Below, piece by piece: positions 2,747 through 9,803 of a stretch of DNA of 64,000 nt. Each line of letters opens with the position of its first letter. Within the stretch, counting starts at the first letter, position 1. A program made the translations under genes and the position numbers. Origin of the DNA: Planctomycetota bacterium (GTDB lineage Bacteria > Planctomycetota > MHYJ01 > WSZJ01); assembly GCA_038060895.1 (NCBI GenBank), contig JBBTCT010000022.1, positions 192,001 to 256,000 of the forward strand, read 5' to 3'. The notes beneath the pieces were generated by a model. It was given only the letters and a program-made list of their open reading frames with translations, was not told the DNA's origin and made no database searches.

Positions 2747-3134
2747 GAGGCCCCGGACCCTGCGCGCTTAAGGCAGTCTCGGAATCTCGCCGTGCCGGAC
2801 GGAAGTAACTGCATCGGATAACCGAGCCCAGACCGGCGAGTTCTTCGTTGCTTGAAAAGGGCTCCCCGATCAGAACTCGAACTGATTGCGCGAGCATTTC
2901 GCGATGATGGCGCTTCATGCATCGAAGCTGTCAAGGCGCCGCGTCCACGGGACAGGGCCTACTCGTGCGCTCAGCGGAAAGTTCGGATTTCATCCAGACT
3001 GGTGACCAGACTGGATACGAATACGAACTATGGCCGAGATGGCGAAGGGCCTCCAGTTCAGCTAACTGAAGCCAGCGGCGGAAGTTGCATCAATTTCTGC
3101 CTGCGACAGCTGATAGTTCGTATTTCATCCAAAG

Positions 3135-3207
3135 TGCCCCCCGCAGGATTCGAACCTGCACAAGACCGGTTTTGAATCGGTCGCCTCTGCCGTTGGGCTA
3201 CGAGGGC
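3135..3207 (-). tRNA. trnL: tRNA-Leu(CAA), short variable loop
   Basis: Cloverleaf; anticodon loop TT-CAA-AA; T-loop TTCGAAT; A73. Confidence 0.85.
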
Positions 3208-3219
3208 CTGCGAATCAAA

Positions 3220-3290
3220 AGCTCCCGATGGGAATCGAACCCACACCCTCCTGCTTACGAGGCAGGTGCTCTCCTTTGAGCTACAAGAGC
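3220..3290 (-). tRNA. trnT: tRNA-Thr(CGT)
   Basis: Stem CCTGC/GCAGG, loop CT-CGT-AA; T-loop TTCGATT. Confidence 0.9.
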
Positions 3291-3293
3291 GGA

Positions 3294-3364
3294 TGCGCTC
3301 GTCAGGACTCGAACCTGCATCGGCCGGTTATCGACCGGCTGCTCTACCGCTGAGCTACGGGCGC
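3294..3364 (-). tRNA. trnI: tRNA-Ile(GAT), C33
   Basis: Stem GCCGG/CCGGC, loop TC-GAT-AA; single mismatches in the acceptor and T stems. Confidence 0.8.
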
Positions 3365-3367
3365 GCA

Positions 3368-3438
3368 AGCCTCTCGAGGGGGACGATCCCTCTTCTCCTG
3401 CCTGGGAAGCAGGCGTTCCACCGTTAAACCAGAGAGGC
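3368..3438 (-). tRNA. trnG: tRNA-Gly(CCC), atypical T-loop
   Basis: Perfect acceptor stem, loop TT-CCC-AG, U73; T-loop ATCGTCC. Confidence 0.75.
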
Positions 3439-3442
3439 GAAG

Positions 3443-3514
3443 TGCTCTCGGCAGGAATCGAACCTGCGGTCTTCAGCATGTCGGGCTGCCGCTCTTCCGC
3501 TGAGCTACGAGAGC
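3443..3514 (-). tRNA. trnV: tRNA-Val(GAC), C33
   Basis: Loop CC-GAC-AT; acceptor GCTCTCG/CGAGAGC; A73. Confidence 0.85.
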
Positions 3515-3581
3515 CGTTCGACTCGCTTCGCTCGCTCACGGCGGAGCAGACGAGTTCGGTCGAATCGCGGGCAAAACCAGA

Positions 3582-3652
3582 TGGTCCCAGGAGGAGTTGA
3601 ACCTCCGTCGCCGGTATGTGAGACCGGCATTCTCCCGTTGAACTACGGGACC
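3582..3652 (-). tRNA. trnV: tRNA-Val(CAC)
   Basis: Stem CCGGT/ACCGG, loop CT-CAC-AT. Confidence 0.9.
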
Positions 3653-3654
3653 GA

Positions 3655-3727
3655 TGCTCGGGGGAGGATTCGAACCTCCACTGACCAGCTTCTGAGACTG
3701 GTGCCTCTGCCGTTGGGCTACGCGAGC
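3655..3727 (-). tRNA. trnL: tRNA-Leu(CAG), short variable loop
   Basis: Loop CT-CAG-AA; 5-nt variable region TCAGT; A73. Confidence 0.85.
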
Positions 3728-3856
3728 GTTGTGGTTGTCGCTGGGGACGACTGGATGTGGGCGGCCGTGCGGCGGAGGCGAAGGGTGCCCCGGCGCGCGC
3801 CTGGTTCATCAGCACTCTTGCGCCCGCAGCCTCCGACGCCGGGCGCCCACGTCCAG

Positions 3857-3932
3857 TCGGGATGGCTGGATTTGAACCAGCGATCTCCTCGTCCCGAACG
3901 AGGCGTGTTGAGCCAGGCTTCACTACATCCCG
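3857..3932 (-). tRNA. trnP: tRNA-Pro(CGG)
   Basis: C1-G72, A73, loop TT-CGG-GA. Confidence 0.9.
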
Positions 3933-3934
3933 GA

Positions 3935-4006
3935 AGCGACTGGTGGGACTCGAACCCACGTCGACCACCATGGCAAGGTGGCGCTCAGCCTCTGAGCCAC
4001 AGCCGC
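3935..4006 (-). tRNA. trnG: tRNA-Gly(GCC)
   Basis: Loop TT-GCC-AT, U73. Confidence 0.9.
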
Positions 4007-4020
4007 GTTTTGATTCAAGA

Positions 4021-4093
4021 AGCCCTCGGCGGGGATCGAACCCGCATCAGCTTGTTTGGAAGACAGGCGCCTTCGCCGTTCGGCCACGAGAGC
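4021..4093 (-). tRNA. trnG: tRNA-Gly(TCC)
   Basis: Loop CT-TCC-AA, U73. Confidence 0.85.
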
Positions 4094-4109
4094 GGAATTG
4101 TTGTAAGTG

Positions 4110-4185
4110 GGCCCTCGACGGGAGTCGAACCCGTCGTCTCCCTTCCTCATACGGAAGGGTGTCTCGCCGCTCGACTACGAGGACC
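4110..4185 (-). tRNA. Atypical tRNA: 8-bp acceptor (G-1:C73, His-like) and 20-nt anticodon arm; anticodon undetermined (possibly ATG)
   Basis: Acceptor GGTCCTCG/CGAGGGCC; normal D and T arms (TTCGACT); anticodon arm CCCTTCC-GTATGA-GGAAGGG. Confidence 0.7.
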
Positions 4186-4189
4186 GTTA

Positions 4190-4273
4190 TGGGTGCGGCA
4201 GGAGTTGAACCTGCTGAGCCCGCGAGGGCTGCTGGGTTACGGCCAGCTCAGTTTTCCGATTCCGTACACACCC
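4190..4273 (-). tRNA. trnY: tRNA-Tyr(GTA), C33, long variable arm
   Basis: Loop CC-GTA-AC; variable hairpin AGCCC-TCGC-GGGCT. Confidence 0.85.
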
Positions 4274-4320
4274 TGAGTTCGCGCGACGGGTCGGCGAGTC
4301 GCGCAATTGACGGTGGGCGC

Positions 4321-4457
4321 TTCGACTCGTGTCCGGGCGCTTCGCGCCCGGCACTCGCTCAGGGCATTCGCCTCGCCAGAGCCACCGTTCGCGGTCGGCT
4401 CCGCCATGAGCGAGCCCCCGTGAGAGGCGCGGTGCGCCTCTCACGGTGCGAGTCGAA
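4321..4457. repeat. REP-like palindromic repeat pair (TTCGACTCG...CTCGCTCA core)
   Basis: Inverted copies at 4321-4365 and 4403-4457; related copies at 3517-3542 and 5284-5339. Confidence 0.7.
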
Positions 4458-4529
4458 TGGAAGCGGCAGGGTTCGCACCTGCGTCGGCTCGTTTAGGAAA
4501 CGAGGGCCTGTCTACTCGGCCACACTTCC
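4458..4529 (-). tRNA. trnR: tRNA-Arg(CCT), A18/G55
   Basis: Loop TT-CCT-AA; D-loop AGTAGAC; T-loop TGCGAAC. Confidence 0.85.
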
Positions 4530-4531
4530 GA

Positions 4532-4602
4532 TGGGGACGGAGGGAGTTGAACCCGCATCACGAGGTTCGTAGTCTCGTGTCCTTCCGTTGGACGACGTCC
4601 CC
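4532..4602 (-). tRNA. trnR: tRNA-Arg(ACG)
   Basis: Loop CT-ACG-AA; A20 present. Confidence 0.85.
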
Positions 4603-4608
4603 GACTCA

Positions 4609-4681
4609 TGGTGAAGGGTGGGATCGAACCACCACATCCTGGTCTTCAGCCAGGCGCTCAGACCCTCTGAGCTACTTCACC
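4609..4681 (-). tRNA. trnF: tRNA-Phe(GAA)
   Basis: Perfect stems; loop CT-GAA-GA. Confidence 0.9.
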
Positions 4682-4686
4682 GCAAA

Positions 4687-4757
4687 TAGGCGCGGCGGGA
4701 ATCGAACCCGCTCTTTCAGGTTGAAGGCCTGGGTGCCTGCCATTAGCTGACGCGCCC
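4687..4757 (-). tRNA. trnE: tRNA-Glu(TTC), C33
   Basis: Loop CC-TTC-AA; T-loop TTCGATT. Confidence 0.8.
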
Positions 4758-4768
4758 GCACGATTGGA

Positions 4769-4841
4769 TGGGAGCGGAGGGATTCGAACCCTTCCTCGTC
4801 CGGGTTAAAAATCCGGTGCTCAGCCACTGAGCGACGCGCCC
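4769..4841 (-). tRNA. trnK: tRNA-Lys(TTT)
   Basis: Loop TT-TTT-AA; a few stem mismatches. Confidence 0.8.
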
Positions 4842-4849
4842 TTGCGCAA

Positions 4850-4921
4850 TAGAGTCGGTGGGACTTGAACCCACATAGGCCTGCTTAAGAGGCAGGAGCT
4901 CGGCCGTTGAGCGACGACTCT
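4850..4921 (-). tRNA. trnK: tRNA-Lys(CTT)
   Basis: Perfect stems; loop CT-CTT-AA. Confidence 0.9.
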
Positions 4922-4925
4922 GTAA

Positions 4926-4998
4926 TAGGGATGGAGGGATTCGAACCCTCGTCTCCAGGCTGAGAACCTGGCCGCCTTGGCCACTGGCCGACATCCCC
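4926..4998 (-). tRNA. trnE: tRNA-Glu(CTC)
   Basis: Loop TT-CTC-AG. Confidence 0.85.
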
Positions 4999-5009
4999 GG
5001 GCGTAGAAA

Positions 5010-5080
5010 CAGGGGGGGCTGGATTCGAACCAGCAGAACGAGTGTCAGAGGCTCGGGGGTTACCGTTACCCGACCCCCCT
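5010..5080 (-). tRNA. trnQ: tRNA-Gln(CTG)
   Basis: Loop CT-CTG-AC; G73. Confidence 0.85.
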
Positions 5081-5087
5081 CTTTTGA

Positions 5088-5158
5088 CAGAGGCGGAAGG
5101 AATCGCACCCTCATCACCGGACTTGGAAACCGGAGTCCTGCTGTTGGACGACGCCTCT
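5088..5158 (-). tRNA. trnW: tRNA-Trp(CCA), A18/G55
   Basis: Loop TT-CCA-AG; A1-U72, G73; T-loop TGCGATT. Confidence 0.85.
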
Positions 5159-5163
5159 ACGAA

Positions 5164-5235
5164 TGGAAGTGGTGGGAATCGAACCCACAGTCTCCTGCTT
5201 GCGGAGCAGGCGCCTTCCCGTTGGGCTACACCCCC
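5164..5235 (-). tRNA. trnA: tRNA-Ala(CGC), C33
   Basis: G3:U70 identity pair; loop TC-CGC-AA. Confidence 0.9.
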
Positions 5236-5276
5236 GAATGCAAGTCCTTCAACTGGTCAAAGCCTCCGTCCCGTCT

Positions 5277-5339
5277 CGGCTCCGCCATGAGCGAGCCCCC
5301 GTGAGAGGCGCGAAGCGCCTCACATGGGGGCGAGTCGAA
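5277..5339. repeat. REP-like repeat, near-identical to 4396-4457
   Basis: cggctccgccatgagcgagcccccgtgagaggcgc...gcgagtcgaa is shared by both copies. Confidence 0.8.
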
Positions 5340-5411
5340 TGGAAGCGGCGGGAATCGAACCCGCATGGGCCTGTCTGCCGGACAGGTGCCTTCCCGTTAG
5401 GCAACGCCCCC
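5340..5411 (-). tRNA. trnA: tRNA-Ala(GGC), C33
   Basis: G3:U70; loop CC-GGC-AG. Confidence 0.9.
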
Positions 5412-5546
5412 GACGTTTTCGTCGTTTTCCATTCCCGTGCGCGAGGATGTCGTGCGGCGCAGCGAGGAGGTGCGTCGGGCCCGCGCCGGCCATTTGGCGC
5501 GGAGTCCGGCGCGCTTCCTCGCGAAGCCGCACGACATCCTCGCGCA

Positions 5547-5638
5547 CGGGGAGTGGGGTTTTCTACCCCCGGGGGCCGCCTTGAGGGCGGCCCGCCTCGT
5601 TAGCAATGAGGTGCTTTAAGCCGCTCAGCCACCTCCCC
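5547..5638 (-). tRNA. trnS: tRNA-Ser(GCT), degenerate T-arm (possible pseudogene)
   Basis: Loop TT-GCT-AA, long variable hairpin; T-loop reads TAGAAAA. Confidence 0.7.
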
Positions 5639-5666
5639 GGATTTGCGCGATGGGATCGCGCATTGA

Positions 5667-5755
5667 AGGAAGGTGAAGGATTCGAACCTTCGTCCCCCTC
5701 GCGGGGGCTCCTGTTTTCGAGACAGGCGCGATAAGCCGGACTCTGCCAACCTTCC
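5667..5755 (-). tRNA. trnS: tRNA-Ser(CGA)
   Basis: Loop CT-CGA-AA, long variable arm. Confidence 0.9.
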
Positions 5756-5760
5756 GTGGA

Positions 5761-5833
5761 CAGGGGCACCAGGATTCGAACCTGGATCAACCTCCTTAAC
5801 AGGGAGGTGACTTACCGGTTAGCCCACACCCCT
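5761..5833 (-). tRNA. trnN: tRNA-Asn(GTT)
   Basis: Loop CT-GTT-AA; G73. Confidence 0.9.
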
Positions 5834-5950
5834 AACTTGCACGGGCCTTTCCGCTCGTGCCGCGTGCGGCGGAGCGAATCTGGACGCCGCGCCCGCGCCG
5901 GACTTTCGGCGCGGCGTGCGGCGTCCGGATTCGCGGAGCCGCATGCGGCA

Positions 5951-6024
5951 CGAGGGCGACGGGATTTGAACCCGTGATCTCCGCCGTGACAGGGCGGTGT
6001 CTTGAGCCTCTGGACGACGCCCCC
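5951..6024 (-). tRNA. trnD: tRNA-Asp(GTC)
   Basis: Loop CT-GTC-AC; G73. Confidence 0.92.
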
Positions 6025-6028
6025 AGAA

Positions 6029-6100
6029 TCGCGCCTGCAGGAATCGAACCTGCCTGCTCCTGGTTCCAGGCCAGGCGCGCAGCCACTGCGCCAAGACGCG
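6029..6100 (-). tRNA. trnP: tRNA-Pro(TGG), C33/A37
   Basis: C1-G72, A73; loop CC-TGG-AA. Confidence 0.85.
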
Positions 6101-6216
6101 AGGAATTGCTTTTTTGCCGGGCCGTTCCATTTGCGGAGGGGTGGGAGTCGAAGGAACGCGGAGTCGCGCGGCCGTTCGTGCGACTCCGCGTTCCTTCGAC
6201 TCCCACCCCTCCGCAA

Positions 6217-6290
6217 AGCGCGGAAGTGGATTCGAACCACTGCGCACCGGTTTTGCGGACCGAGCCGTTGAGCCACTCCGGCATCCGCGC
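6217..6290 (-). tRNA. trnC: tRNA-Cys(GCA), C33
   Basis: Loop CC-GCA-AA; U73. Confidence 0.85.
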
Positions 6291-6296
6291 GCTTGA

Positions 6297-6367
6297 TAGC
6301 GGGAAGGGGAATCGCACCCCTGTGTGCGGCTTATGAGACCGCCGATCAGCTACTGATCCATCCCGCA
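6297..6367 (-). tRNA. trnM: tRNA-Met(CAT), unpaired 1x72, A18/G55
   Basis: Loop CT-CAT-AA; T1xT72 mismatch; T-loop TGCGATT. Confidence 0.8.
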
Positions 6368-6567
6368 GGGATTTGAGGTGGGAGGTTGTTGATTTGCGAG
6401 GCGAGACGAACGGCCGCCTCGCCTCGCACATCAACAACCTCCCACCTCAAATCCCCGGTACGGCAATGACCGCACGAACAGGGGAGAAAAGAACCGGCCC
6501 GGGCGCGTCGCCGTGAGGGGGGGAGGGGCGGACGTCGGGGGAGGGCCATTGTTGCCCGGGCCGGGGA

Positions 6568-6640
6568 TGTGTCCGGCAGGAGTCGCACCTGCAACCTCCA
6601 GATTCGGAGACTGGGGCTCTTCTGGTTGAGCTACAGACAC
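6568..6640 (-). tRNA. trnR: tRNA-Arg(CCG), A18/G55
   Basis: Loop CT-CCG-AA; T-loop TGCGACT. Confidence 0.85.
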
Positions 6641-6789
6641 AGGGAAGAAGGGTCGTTTTGCCGTTCGCCAATTCGCGCTTCGGGATGATGAAGCGACGGG
6701 GTCGGGGCGAGCGGCCACACTTGAAGGCAAGCTGACCAGAGATTGTGAGCGAGCTCCGACTCCGTCGCTTCATCATCCCGAGGCGCGAA

Positions 6790-6860
6790 TTGGGGCGGCA
6801 CGACTCGAACGTGCACGGCGAGGTTCAAGGGCTCGCGGCCTACCTTTAGCTGACGCCCCA
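6790..6860 (-). tRNA. trnQ: tRNA-Gln(TTG), C33
   Basis: U1-A72; loop CC-TTG-AA. Confidence 0.85.
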
Positions 6861-6994
6861 GAAGTTTCGTTGCCGTCCTGAATGCAGGGGTGTGATCGAT
6901 CGATTGGCTTGTCGTTCGGCCCGGGCGGAGCCGGCCGTATGGCGGAGGTCGGGACGAACGACGAGCCAATCGATCGATCACACCCCTGCATTCA

Positions 6995-7067
6995 TCGGGG
7001 TTGAAGGAGTTGAACCTTCATCTGCGCATTGAGGGGGCGCCGTCCTCAGCCATTAGACGAAACCCCA
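6995..7067 (-). tRNA. trnE: tRNA-Glu(CTC), second copy, C33
   Basis: Loop CC-CTC-AA; T-loop TTCAACT. Confidence 0.75.
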
Positions 7068-7089
7068 GGAAGGCGAGGGCAGCAGAGAT

Positions 7090-7230
7090 TCAGAAAAACC
7101 GGCTCCCGATTCCCGGGTTGGGAATGGGATGACATGGAACCGGAAGCCGGTTCGGGAAGATCCGCCGGTTATCAAAGATCACTTCGCGCTGCGTCGGTTG
7201 ACCGCAACTTGCGCTTCCATCTCCTGGCAT
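7090..7230 (-). CDS. Putative 46-aa leader peptide (MPGDGSASCGQ...GSRFF)
   Basis: AGGAGG 6 nt upstream of the ATG; the ORF runs through a terminator-like hairpin and stops just after its U-tract. Confidence 0.4.
   Translation of the reverse strand: MPGDGSASCGQPTQREVIFDNRRIFPNRLPVPCHPIPNPGIGSRFF
7094..7150 (-). terminator. Intrinsic terminator or attenuator hairpin inside the tRNA array
   Basis: 15-bp stem CCGGCTTCCGGTTCC/GGAATCGGGAGCCGG followed by TTTTT. Confidence 0.55.
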
Positions 7231-7245
7231 GACGTTCCTCCTGCA

Positions 7246-7316
7246 AGGGACCGGTCGGGGTTGCACCGACGTCTCCCGGGCCACAGCCGGGCGGTCTGCT
7301 GTTGAGCTACAGTCCC
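7246..7316 (-). tRNA. trnH: tRNA-His(GTG) without G-1:C73, A18/G55
   Basis: Loop CT-GTG-GC; position -1 is C and N73 is T; T-loop TGCAACC. Confidence 0.8.
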
Positions 7317-7375
7317 GTGGCGGCGCCGGTCTGGAAGGTTGATGAGTGAAGCGGCGAAAAGGTTCGCGCGTGTGG

Positions 7376-7409
7376 AAAACGAAAACGCCGCCGAGTGATC
7401 GGCGGCGTT
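7376..7409 (-). terminator. Intrinsic terminator downstream of the small secreted-peptide gene
   Basis: AACGCCGCCGA-TCAC-TCGGCGGCGTT followed by TTCGTTTT. Confidence 0.7.
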
Positions 7410-7435
7410 CTGTTTGATCCTGGTCTGGCCGGCGG

Positions 7436-7663
7436 CTACATGCACTCGTTGCCCATTCCGACGTCTTCCGAACCGGCGCCGGATTCCGAGTCCATGCCGC
7501 CTTCGGTCGCGTCGCCGCCGGAGTGATCGTCCGTGCCGGGGAGCGGGCCGTCGCCGGTGCCGCCACCGTCGTAACCCGGCGCGGGCGGGGGAGGGCAGGC
7601 GAACGTCAGGACCGGGCTGGACAGGACTGCGAGGGTCACGAGCGCGATGATGAAGAGTTTCAT
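7436..7663 (-). CDS. Small secreted acidic Gly/Asp/Pro-rich peptide (75 aa)
   Basis: RBS AAGGAG, signal peptide MKLFIIALVTLAVLSSPVLTFA, own terminator. Confidence 0.65.
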   Translation of the reverse strand: MKLFIIALVTLAVLSSPVLTFACPPPPAPGYDGGGTGDGPLPGTDDHSGGDATEGGMDSESGAGSEDVGMGNECM

Positions 7664-7919
7664 GGTTATCTCCTTGATTTCTTTGTTTGAAGGCGTTTGT
7701 TTGTTTCGTACGACGGAAGTATGTATAGCAACGGGGGTGCCACTCGTTCCGCCTGCCGCCAACATCGACATAAAGCGTGTATTAGTAGTGTCTTGCGAGC
7801 GAATCACGATTTCCATGGCGCTCGAATTGAGCCATTAGCGTACGAAAACAAGACGATAACGCCGTACGCGAGTATGGGATTCGATCCCAAGCGGGTGCCA
7901 GCCTCTGCCAGCCACGCGC

Positions 7920-7964: not shown

Positions 7965-7987
7965 AATCAGAAACGGAGGTCTCCCCC

Positions 7988-8512
7988 ATGAATCTCACCA
8001 CCACCGAAAAGAAGTTCATCCTCCACTGGGGCGAAATGGGAACCCGCTGGGGGATCAACCGCACCGTCGCCCAGGTCCACGCCCTTCTCTACATCTCGGG
8101 CCGCCCCGTCCCCGCCGATGAAATCGCCGAGACGCTCTCCGTCGCGCGCTCCAACGTCTCCACCTCGCTCCGCGAACTCCAGGGCTGGGGCCTCGCCAAG
8201 GTGACCCACGTCCTCGGCGACCGCAGGGATCACTTCGAGACCTTCCAGGACGTCTGGGCCATGTTCAAGCTCGTGGCGCAGGAGCGGAAGCGCCGCGAGA
8301 TTGACCCGACGCTGGCGATGCTGAAAGAGGCGATCGAGCAGGCGAACAAGGATGGCGAGAAGGCGGCCAGGGAGAGACTCGAGCACATGCTGGAGTTCTT
8401 CGAGACGCTGACGGCCACCTTCGACGAGTTCGTGAAGATGTCGCCGGGGGCGCTTCGGAAGGTCGTGAAGTATGGCGGGAAGCTGCAGAAGCTGCTGGGG
8501 GTCGGGACTTAG
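7988..8512 (+). CDS. GbsR/MarR family transcriptional regulator
   Basis: FILHWGEMGTRWGINRTVAQVHALL...ARSNVSTSLRELQGWGL signature. Confidence 0.9.
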   Translation: MNLTTTEKKFILHWGEMGTRWGINRTVAQVHALLYISGRPVPADEIAETLSVARSNVSTSLRELQGWGLAKVTHVLGDRRDHFETFQDVWAMFKLVAQERKRREIDPTLAMLKEAIEQANKDGEKAARERLEHMLEFFETLTATFDEFVKMSPGALRKVVKYGGKLQKLLGVGT

Positions 8513-8564
8513 GCCGGTCTTTTTTTTCGCGCTGAACATTTCAAAACTTACAGAAAGAACGGTT

Positions 8565-9803
8565 ATGACAGCCCACAGGCGATCTGCGTGGTTCTTCACC
8601 GAAGCGGCTCCGGCCCCCAGGGCCTGGGTCTGCTACGACGCGGAGTGCGCCCTGTGCACCGCCGGCGCCCGCCGCTTCGCCCCCCTCCTCGCCCGCCGCG
8701 GCATCGAAACCGTGCCGCTTCAGGCCGAGTGGGTCCGCGCGCGCCTCGGCCTGCGCCCCGACCAGATGGCGTTCATTGCTGCCGACGGGCAGACGTTCGG
8801 CGGGGCGGAAGCCGTGGCGCGCGTCTGCCGCGAGATCGGGTGGGCGTGGCCCGCGTGGGCGGCGAGCCGCGTGCCCGGAGTCGGCGCCCTCATGCGCGCC
8901 GGGTATCGCTGGGTCTCCGCGCGCCGGCATTGCGCGGGCGGGGCGTGCCGGATCGAGAAGCGGTCCGACGCCGTGACGTGGGAGCCGCTGGTGGTCCTGC
9001 CCGCGGCGGTGTTCGCGCTTCGCGAAGCGCTTCCCGCGTGGCTGTGGATGTGGGCGCTGTGCGCGGCGTTCTTCGCGGGATTCAAGTGGGTGACGCTCCG
9101 GAAAGCGCCGCCCGCCCGGCTCGGTGCGAGTCTCGCGTACGTCTTCACGTGGCCCGGCATGGACGCGAAGCGCTTCCTCCACGGCCGCGCGAAATCCGCG
9201 CCACGCACTTCCGAGTGGGCCGCGGCCGCGGTCAAGGTCGCCGTCGGTGTGGCGCTGTTCTTCTGCGTCCCTCGCTTCGTCGCCGACCCGCTCCTCGCCG
9301 CGTGGATCGCCATGGCCGGCCTGATCTTCGCCGTCCACTGCGGCGCCTTTCACCTCGCCAGCTGCGCCTGGCGCGCCGCCGGCCGCGACGCCGACCCCGT
9401 CATGAACGCGCCGCTCCTCGCCACGTCCCCCTCCGGTTTCTGGAGCGGCCGCTGGAACCGCGGCTTCAGCGACCTCGCCCGCGACCTCGTCGTGCGGCCC
9501 CTCCGCCGCGCCCCCGGCCTCGCGCTCTTCACCGTCTTCGCCCTCAGCGGCCTCGTCCACGAACTCGTCATCAGCGTCCCCGCCCGCGGCGGCTGGGGCC
9601 TGCCCACCGCGTACTTCGTCCTGCAAGGCGCCGCCGTCGCGCTCGAGCGCAGCCGGCTGGGGAAGCGGCTCGGTCTCGATCGCGGCCTGACCGGAAGGCT
9701 CTTCGCGTGGACCGTCGTCGCAGGCCCCGCGTTCTTCCTCTTCCACCCCCCGTTCGTGCACGGCGTCGTGCTGCCGATGCTTCGAGCGGCGGGGGTGAAG
9801 TGA
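8565..9803 (+). CDS. DUF393 (DCC-type) thiol-disulfide domain fused to an MBOAT/wax-synthase-like acyltransferase
   Basis: YDAECALC motif; FWSGRWN and FALSGLVHE (catalytic His). Confidence 0.85.
   Translation: MTAHRRSAWFFTEAAPAPRAWVCYDAECALCTAGARRFAPLLARRGIETVPLQAEWVRARLGLRPDQMAFIAADGQTFGGAEAVARVCREIGWAWPAWAASRVPGVGALMRAGYRWVSARRHCAGGACRIEKRSDAVTWEPLVVLPAAVFALREALPAWLWMWALCAAFFAGFKWVTLRKAPPARLGASLAYVFTWPGMDAKRFLHGRAKSAPRTSEWAAAAVKVAVGVALFFCVPRFVADPLLAAWIAMAGLIFAVHCGAFHLASCAWRAAGRDADPVMNAPLLATSPSGFWSGRWNRGFSDLARDLVVRPLRRAPGLALFTVFALSGLVHELVISVPARGGWGLPTAYFVLQGAAVALERSRLGKRLGLDRGLTGRLFAWTVVAGPAFFLFHPPFVHGVVLPMLRAAGVK

Follow-up and report, generated by a model that had tools for sequence, protein, structure and literature searches.

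In the canonical elbow of transfer RNA (tRNA), residue 18 of the D-loop intercalates between residues 57 and 58 and bonds residue 55 of the T-loop, and residue 19 pairs with residue 56, giving a flat outer face (available text of PMC4810234 and PMC7912444). Pseudouridine 55 (Psi55) is called the most universally conserved tRNA modification in the accessible portion of PMC7912444. T-loops of the flavin mononucleotide (FMN) and cobalamin riboswitches follow a Y-G-N-R-A consensus with an intercalated adenosine; according to the available part of that work, the intercalating base is A in 99.96% of FMN riboswitches and is joined, in the structure discussed, by two hydrogen bonds to the sugar edge of the position-2 G, whereas tRNA T-loops are set apart by a U at that position (bioRxiv 10.1101/2022.12.26.521914). 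Here we describe tRNAs that carry A18 and G55 in place of G18 and Psi55, beginning with five genes of a tandem tRNA array in a window of 64,000 nucleotides from a Planctomycetota bacterium (assembly GCA_038060895.1, contig JBBTCT010000022.1, positions 192,001 to 256,000; all coordinates below count from the first letter of this window unless a contig is named). We consider it probable, at roughly 80%, that A18–G55 is a structural replacement of G18–Psi55 and thus a second way to lock the D-loop into the T-loop, because UGNRA with an intercalated adenine is the usual riboswitch T-loop solution.

The genes in question lie in an array that fits the definitions of a tRNA array unit and of a long tRNA array given in the available text of PMC4758250 and PMC8421152. 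It holds 34 genes in 4183 bases, in a single orientation and at about 8 genes per kilobase, which places it within the long-array definition of at least 20 genes and at least 2 per kilobase; 30 of the 34 genes pass the gathering score of the Rfam tRNA model RF00005. In the host assembly (5.4 Mb, 47 contigs, 86.5% complete), ARAGORN called 51 more tRNAs beyond the array, on other contigs or at a distance. These dispersed calls include His, Trp, Met and Arg-CCT genes, and the array is supernumerary; no second Arg-CCG gene was called in this 86.5% complete genome. The array and the five genes are as follows.

3134–7316, minus strand: array of 34 tRNA genes called by ARAGORN
4458–4529, minus strand: tRNA-Arg(CCT), with A18 at 4513, G19 at 4512 and G55 at 4476; Rfam score 49.5 bits
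5086–5159, minus strand: tRNA-Trp(CCA), with A18 at 5142 and G55 at 5106; 47.7 bits
6297–6367, minus strand: tRNA-Met(CAT), with A18 at 6351 and G55 at 6315; 50.2 bits
6565–6641, minus strand: tRNA-Arg(CCG), with A18 at 6623 and G55 at 6586; 58.3 bits (bounds by Rfam and orthologues 6568–6640)
7246–7316, minus strand: tRNA-His(GTG), the first gene of the array, with A18 at 7300 and G55 at 7264; 48.3 bits

The original prediction, made on this DNA, held that the five array tRNAs whose T-loop starts with TGC are exactly the five with AG instead of GG in the D-loop, and that the other 29 keep GG. ARAGORN calls combined with loop extraction confirmed both statements. The D-loops of the five read gagtAGaca (Arg-CCT), aacAGca (Trp), cagtAGctg (Met), aaccAGaa (Arg-CCG) and aacAGca (His), with position 18 assigned from sequence by alignment to the GG slot of the D-loop. 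All 29 remaining genes have GG and none has G55; their T-loops start with TTC in 27 cases, with ATC in Gly-CCC (3368–3438) and with an aberrant TAGAAAA in Ser-GCT (5546–5639). Outside the array, none of the 51 host calls combines AG with a standard 7-nucleotide TGC T-loop, so the dispersed host set is canonical. In other respects, the five genes look like ordinary tRNA genes. They are full-length against RF00005 (model positions 1–71) at 47.7–58.3 bits, where the gathering score is 29, with D-loops of 7–9 nucleotides and anticodon stems of 5 base pairs. G19, T54, C56, R57 and A58 are retained in all five, and their T-loops fit the UGNRA consensus, with TGCGA in four and TGCAA in His. The tRNA-His gene lacks an encoded G-1, the preceding base being C, and most copies of tRNA-Met(CAT) have T both at position 1 and at its partner.

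The co-occurrence of A18 and G55 in the window is not a matter of chance (5/0/0/29 table, Fisher exact p = 3.6e-6). For a measure of coupling across the whole molecule, we aligned four congeneric arrays (114 unique sequences, 2485 column pairs) with a covariance model built from the class-I tRNAs of the array. This alignment is blind to GG/AG identity and was used in place of a MAFFT alignment of 30 class-I tRNAs, which shifted some D-loops by one column; in three rows it puts the Asn D-loop in the wrong place, so that they read as ‘C18’. Coupling was scored by mutual information, since counting only G-C, A-U and G-U would treat A-G as broken. Columns 18 and 55, for which the original prediction had proposed this check, share 0.611 bits, approximately the whole entropy of either column. 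They rank 15th among the 2485 pairs. The 14 pairs above are all Watson–Crick stem pairs, making 18–55 the top non-helical covarying pair, ahead of the 15–48 Levitt pair.

Each of the other seven genomes of the genus also has a homologous array. Across the eight congeneric arrays, ARAGORN called 242 tRNAs, comprising 206 with GG and no G55, 32 with AG and G55, three with G55 and a D-loop that aligns with orthologues as G17-A18-G19, and one discordant gene taken up below; A18 with U55 occurred in none of the 242. The covariance model added His and Trp genes missed by ARAGORN in congeneric genome G006, both AG/TGC. In 37 of 37 orthologues of the five families, A18, G19, G55 and C56 are invariant, whereas all four bases occur at position 17 and variation is also seen at positions 57, 59 and 60. 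The orthologues contain 13 doubly compensated stem pairs. By family, these comprise Arg-CCT (seven orthologues, position 17 T, A or G, four doubly compensated pairs), Trp (seven, two pairs), Met (seven, three pairs), Arg-CCG (eight, four pairs, with C54 in the G006 copy) and His (eight), all of them A18/G55. On this sequence record, the five families are best described as tRNA genes under purifying selection, and their A18/G55 state evidently predates the divergence of the eight species. The genus alone, therefore, yields no independent switches between the two states.

Independent switches were found in larger collections. We scanned viral contigs and bacterial and archaeal genomes with patterns that fixed one position and left its partner free, running the search both ways. 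These scans are samples rather than censuses (about 119–122 loci each), all counts from them are counts among the matches listed, and some IMG/VR contigs are possibly non-viral. With G55 fixed through a common T-arm (GCAGG-TGCRANN-CCTGC), 25 tRNAs were recognized among 120 viral loci, 22 of them with AG and no GG, three ambiguous and none with a clear GG. With A18 fixed through a common D-arm, 119 viral loci gave 68 tRNAs (not de-duplicated) with T-loops starting TGC (58), AGC (5), GGC (2) or TTC (3), that is, with G55 in 65 of 68. The 2-kb flanks of these A18-fixed loci supplied 245 unique neighbour tRNAs that had been selected at neither position. Among them, the 21 with G55 comprised 19 with A18, one ambiguous and one with neither AG nor GG, and A18 occurred in none of the 224 without G55 (Fisher 2e-26). 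In bacterial and archaeal genomes, fixing G55 gave 14 tRNAs among 121 loci, including six distinct A18/G55 sequences, and fixing A18 gave G55 in 51 of 57 unique tRNAs.

Pooling these data gave at least 187 unique A18/G55 tRNAs, spread over 19 amino-acid families; 185 of the 187 retain C56 and 151 retain U54-A58. Glu was absent from the 187, a sample biased by the D-arm pattern. The double change arose many times, because A18/G55 tRNAs have canonical relatives with the same anticodon at 76–87% identity (Thr-GGT, Gly-GCC, initiator-like Met, Tyr and Arg-TCT). The original prediction was to fall if A18 and G55 occurred independently in larger datasets; the association held. Its proposal of a compensatory pair under selection is likewise supported, as far as sequence comparison can tell, by the samples taken in both directions and by the 37 of 37 orthologues in eight genomes.

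The neighbouring tertiary pair also covaries. T-loops starting TTT (U56) occur with G18-A19 in four of four viral tRNAs (L413, L414, L421 and L473), the tRNA-Glu of Sphingobium phage Lacusarx (L411) combines GA with TTT, and a SAR11 tRNA-Thr(GGT) (L672) has T at 19 with A56. C55 (T-loop TCC) with GG kept was seen in seven viral tRNAs (L426, L428, L440, L466, L509, L413 and L451).

Supernumerary tRNAs often carry A18/G55 and dispersed tRNAs seldom do, but the pair is not confined to the former. Among dispersed tRNAs, it was found in none of the 51 host calls, none of 35 in two Verrucomicrobial genomes and one of 23 in a SAR11 genome. In this SAR11 genome, the sole tRNA-Phe found is A18/G55 and 21 other tRNAs are canonical; the same type of tRNA-Phe, with an encoded CCA, was located at at least 13 Pelagibacter or Pelagibacteraceae loci, plus at least four loci with an identical sequence. 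Single examples appeared in records of candidate-phyla bacteria and in one Nanoarchaeia record. In arrays, the share was two of ten tRNAs in Kofleriaceae, two of 17 in Haliangiales and five of 34 in the genus of the window. Five arrays labelled Verrucomicrobiaceae, Verrucomicrobiota or Prosthecobacter are almost fully converted, with G55 in 14 of 15, eight of nine, ten of ten, eight of eight and five of six tRNAs. By our reading, these 45 G55 tRNAs have AG without GG in 38 cases, GG in two and neither in five. In the two converted-array genomes sampled, the 30 dispersed loci with the best scores contain 35 unique tRNAs, every one of them GG/TTC. The tRNAs of five cultured phages contained no G55 at all (0 of 83: Myrna 0/29, Satis 0/10, Lacusarx 0/23, RHph_Y65 0/18 and V1VFA-S 0/3), and no cultured relative was found for the viral contig richest in A18/G55 examples.

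Two further features of the converted arrays were recorded. Those at L704 and L705 mostly encode the CCA end, which the window array does not, and converted-array tRNAs score 35–59 bits against the Rfam tRNA model compared to 60–76 bits for dispersed tRNAs of the same genomes.

Taken as a structural replacement, A18 would occupy the intercalating slot between residues 57 and 58, with G55 as its sugar-edge partner, so that the general T-loop solution (U-G-N-R-A plus an intercalated A) would have been transplanted into tRNA. The remainder of the elbow, consisting of U54-A58, a purine at 57 and the outer G19-C56 pair, would be kept, and the L shape and the partners of the outer face should therefore be unaffected. 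Either single change would be deleterious and selected against, and positions 18 and 55 would for this reason change together; once fixed, the pair would be held by purifying selection. Such a replacement would need no special function and may simply be a rare, recurrent alternative that fast-evolving supernumerary tRNAs adopt more often. Of 47 tertiary-pair variants of yeast SUP4oc, 45 were non-functional, and in the suppressor tRNA a G18A change was rescued solely by a shifted G (accessible text of PMC4117946). This support is indirect because the T-loop is also part of the promoter in yeast.

Carrying G55 and A18, these tRNAs can have neither Psi55 (made by TruB) nor 2′-O-methylguanosine 18 (Gm18, made by TrmH). 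The original prediction of a TruB-independent elbow stands only in the trivial sense that G55 cannot become pseudouridine; the host genome encodes TruB. We infer that the five window tRNAs are made and used. Long arrays were poorly transcribed in the few cases reported in the available text of PMC8421152. In two metatranscriptome runs, exact contigs covered 3516–3820, 4813–4974 and 7202–7500, the last spanning tRNA-His, at a depth of 2–3 at which DNA carry-over is possible, so that transcription cannot be read from them; the uncovered remainder of the array is equally uninformative.

Several points weigh against structural replacement as a full account. The three-dimensional geometry of A18–G55 is one that we infer. 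The coupling also has exceptions: the sole discordant gene among the 242 congeneric tRNAs, Leu-GAG of genome G001, has G55 with GGG; a Streptomyces tRNA-Gly family with G55, from the G55-fixed genome scan, seemingly keeps GG; two Asn genes in Verrucomicrobial arrays combine GG with G55; and A18 with U55 exists in three of the 68 viral and up to six of the 57 genomic tRNAs. Moreover, neither the rarity of the pair in dispersed tRNAs nor the conversion of 45 of 48 tRNAs in the five Verrucomicrobiaceae arrays is readily explained by a purely neutral alternative.

These distributional points are where an adaptive account, which we regard as possible but clearly the less likely, gains its ground. 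It retains structural compensation and adds that the altered elbow is favoured in supernumerary sets such as long arrays and phage tRNAs. At the RNA level, G55 would remove a T-Psi-C signature that some factor of the host or of a competitor reads, cuts or modifies, or the benefit would be independence from TruB, TrmA or TrmH; in either form, array tRNAs would remain functional when the ordinary ones come under attack or are undermodified. In a possible DNA-level variant, the change would shield the tRNA gene against a homing endonuclease whose target is the conserved sequence of the T-loop. Cleavage between positions 54 and 55 is known from a contact-dependent-inhibition toxin. In favour of the adaptive account, the five Verrucomicrobial arrays are nearly all G55 and the dispersed sets of the two such genomes sampled are canonical. 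We rejected recent duplication as the origin of the converted arrays, because similarity among their members is not raised (mean 0.59–0.67, versus 0.61 in the window array). Homologous short-arm Leu tRNAs (76–80% identical) are GG/TTC in the genus of the window and AG/TGC in one converted array, and uncompensated singles are rare in arrays, a sign of selection rather than decay. In the flanks of two Verrucomicrobial arrays we found ordinary metabolic genes and, beside one converted array, an HNH endonuclease gene; homing endonucleases beside long arrays are discussed in the accessible part of PMC8421152.

Other observations fit such an adaptive role poorly. With the pair in just five of 34 tRNAs, the window array as a whole would not be protected. 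None of the 83 tRNAs of the five cultured phages has G55, and the SAR11 carrier is a housekeeping tRNA-Phe, so no role in a mobile element is required. The original prediction had further suggested that the altered elbow could evade elbow-reading toxins or RNAs. This part is unsupported because the L1 stalk, L5 and RNase P, as well as the T-box, dock on the outer G19-C56 face (available text of PMC4810234), which is unchanged in all five window tRNAs. No T-loop-directed toxin, nuclease or RNA-repair gene was present in the examined flanks of the window array or of the two Verrucomicrobial arrays, and our literature search returned no paper on a T-loop-directed defence nuclease. We would, therefore, advance only tentatively the idea of a second ‘standard’ elbow for auxiliary tRNA sets, indifferent to T-loop readers, cutters and modifiers and with G19-C56 kept for the ribosome, RNase P and synthetases. 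Under that idea, the window array would belong to a family in which its Verrucomicrobial relatives are converted almost fully and it only in part.

Shared descent, by which the five genes would derive from one A18/G55 ancestor through duplication and anticodon change and a single event would have been counted five times, is improbable. Its supporting traces are a T-stem GCAGG/CCTGC common to both Arg genes, the 66% identity of His and Arg-CCG as the closest two of the five, and the lack of state switches within the genus. Mean identity is, however, 53% among the five, 53% among the other 29 and 51% between the groups, and we rejected the five as recent paralogues on these values. Arg-CCT, Trp and Met each have a canonical tRNA as nearest neighbour, A18/G55 tRNAs can be up to 87% identical to a canonical relative of the same anticodon, and the association recurs across 19 amino-acid families in unrelated tRNAs of viruses and bacteria. 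Decay, with the five as degenerating pseudo-tRNAs of a silent array and the AG/TGC coincidence without meaning, is the least credible account: the reported poor transcription of long arrays, the degenerate T-loop of the array member Ser-GCT (which its orthologues lack) and the absence of an encoded G-1 in tRNA-His would suit it, but all five genes score above the Rfam threshold, eight species retain complete cloverleaves, with double compensation at 13 pairs and no variation in A18, G19, G55 and C56, and the uncompensated singles expected of decay amount to just one of 242 tRNAs.

The array contains further unusual members. The tRNA-Gly(CCC) at 3368–3438 has the T-loop ATCGTCC, with A54 and T58, so that the 54–58 pair is swapped; the loop is identical in the orthologues of congeneric genomes G002, G003 and G005, and A54...T58 loops (ATCGTAA, AGCGTTA) recur among viral and Verrucomicrobial tRNAs. 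The tRNA-Ser(GCT) at 5546–5639, with its degenerate TAGAAAA, falls below the Rfam threshold, and TTCGAAT or TTCGAAC is found in its orthologues; the gene has probably become a pseudogene in the host genome only. Bacterial tRNA-Leu normally has a long variable arm. The Leu tRNAs of the array (3134–3207 and 3655–3727 in the window, and G000:C22:182028-182102 on the host contig) lack it and measure 73–75 nucleotides, and arrays labelled Verrucomicrobiaceae, Haliangiales and Kofleriaceae contain comparable short-arm Leu tRNAs with 72–80% identity to them. The last of the three, Leu-GAG (G000:C22:182028), is separated from the rest of the array by about 13 kb that include a DUF4132/DUF7737 gene (35–2746); in other congeneric genomes, Leu-GAG closes the array and the DUF4132 gene is absent from the flank. 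At 4109–4184, ARAGORN called a tRNA with an 8-nucleotide anticodon loop and the four-base anticodon TATG, which is below the Rfam threshold; in other genomes this slot holds a gene of 82–83 nucleotides with a differing call each time.

Six long hairpins occupy the larger spacers between tRNA genes, with arms of 37–45 nucleotides that are 86–98% complementary; several of them are alike, on the opposite strand. Directly upstream of the array and on its strand lies a frame of 210 amino acids, which partly overlaps a DCC1-like/MBOAT_2 gene on the opposite strand and is found at 61–77% identity in all seven other congeneric genomes. Neither this frame nor a flanking frame of 126 amino acids (7436–7816) has a Pfam or NCBIfam match, and the array flanks contained neither an integrase nor a phage gene.

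5434–5550, between tRNA genes: long hairpin
5854–5954, between tRNA genes: long hairpin
6130–6217, between tRNA genes: long hairpin
6368–6455, between tRNA genes: long hairpin
6668–6793, between tRNA genes: long hairpin
6879–6994, between tRNA genes: long hairpin
7967–8599, minus strand: frame of 210 amino acids

The genome scans also returned two Streptomyces tRNA-Gly(TCC) families with G55. The first (L302, L304, L316, L336 and others) has the D-loop CAAGGAAA and the T-loop TGCAAGG; the second (L535, L557, L571, L579 and others) has AGTAGTA and a 6-nucleotide T-loop and comes in groups of three genes. Both may be non-translational glycine tRNAs. In addition, near-identical tRNA-like genes with the T-loop GGCGGAA, distinguished by little more than the anticodon (Pro, Gly, Arg, Ala, Leu, Gln and His), were recovered mostly from Streptomyces (L544, L559, L563, L606, L612, L613, L628, L630, L639 and L650).

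G18 and Psi55 are treated as near-invariant in tRNA, and the tRNAs described here carry a natural, recurrent and strictly coupled replacement that would amount to a second viable solution for the elbow, one used by other RNAs. They constitute a natural experiment on the purpose of Psi55, 5-methyluridine 54 (m5U54) and Gm18, as several tRNA sets must work without Psi55: the Verrucomicrobiaceae arrays, part of the window array, many tRNAs of viral contigs and the SAR11 tRNA-Phe. The substitution pair is also on offer to tRNA engineers, and for annotators the lower scores of such genes are a warning. Should the enrichment in arrays prove adaptive, an as yet undescribed T-loop-directed activity would be indicated.

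In a literature search that left subscription journals largely outside, we found no paper naming an A18–G55 pair. The available text of a review on T-loop modification (PMC7912444) mentions neither G55 nor A18, that of PMC8421152 on arrays contains no occurrence of T-loop, D-loop or G18, that of PMC4758250 is silent on the elbow too, and a review of non-canonical tRNAs does not discuss the elbow pair. The replacement appears new as a variant rather than categorically new, and it may have been described earlier.

Compared to described long tRNA arrays, the window array matches in gene number, density, orientation and supernumerary status, and its members are homologous to array tRNAs of other phyla. 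It is kept in all eight genomes searched of its Planctomycetota genus and is thus not sporadic within it; in 53 genomes from the wider order, class and phylum, just single tRNA-sized matches to it were found. A natural tRNA with G55 is already known in tRNA-Pyl, which lacks G18-G19 and T-Psi-C (accessible text of PMC1851642). It also lacks C56 and G19 and has a 5-nucleotide D-loop, a 6-base-pair anticodon stem and a compact core; the five window tRNAs, with a normal D-loop and G19-C56 kept, are not of this kind.

In the non-proteinogenic cell-wall tRNA-Gly of staphylococci, U-G-Y replaces T-Psi-C and the tRNA is kept out of translation. That system is limited to glycine, whereas the window change spans five genes in a set that is ordinary in other respects; closer to the staphylococcal tRNAs may be a G55-bearing Streptomyces tRNA-Gly(TCC) family. 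Among phage tRNAs, those that evade anticodon nucleases are likewise supernumerary and differ from the host at a conserved site, but the change lies in the anticodon loop and the nuclease is known, whereas the change here lies in the elbow and no nuclease is known for it. With the canonical elbow, the five window tRNAs share the cloverleaf, U54-A58, purine 57, G19-C56 and a D-loop slot for an intercalating purine, and they differ in having A18 and G55 where it has G18 and U or Psi55. With the FMN and cobalamin riboswitches, they share a T-loop (U-G-C-R-A) that fits UGNRA and a partner loop that supplies an A in the intercalating slot. The riboswitch partner is a T-loop receptor and the partner here is the tRNA D-loop, and, unlike in the riboswitch T-loop, the third T-loop base remains engaged in the tRNA-specific C56-G19 pair.

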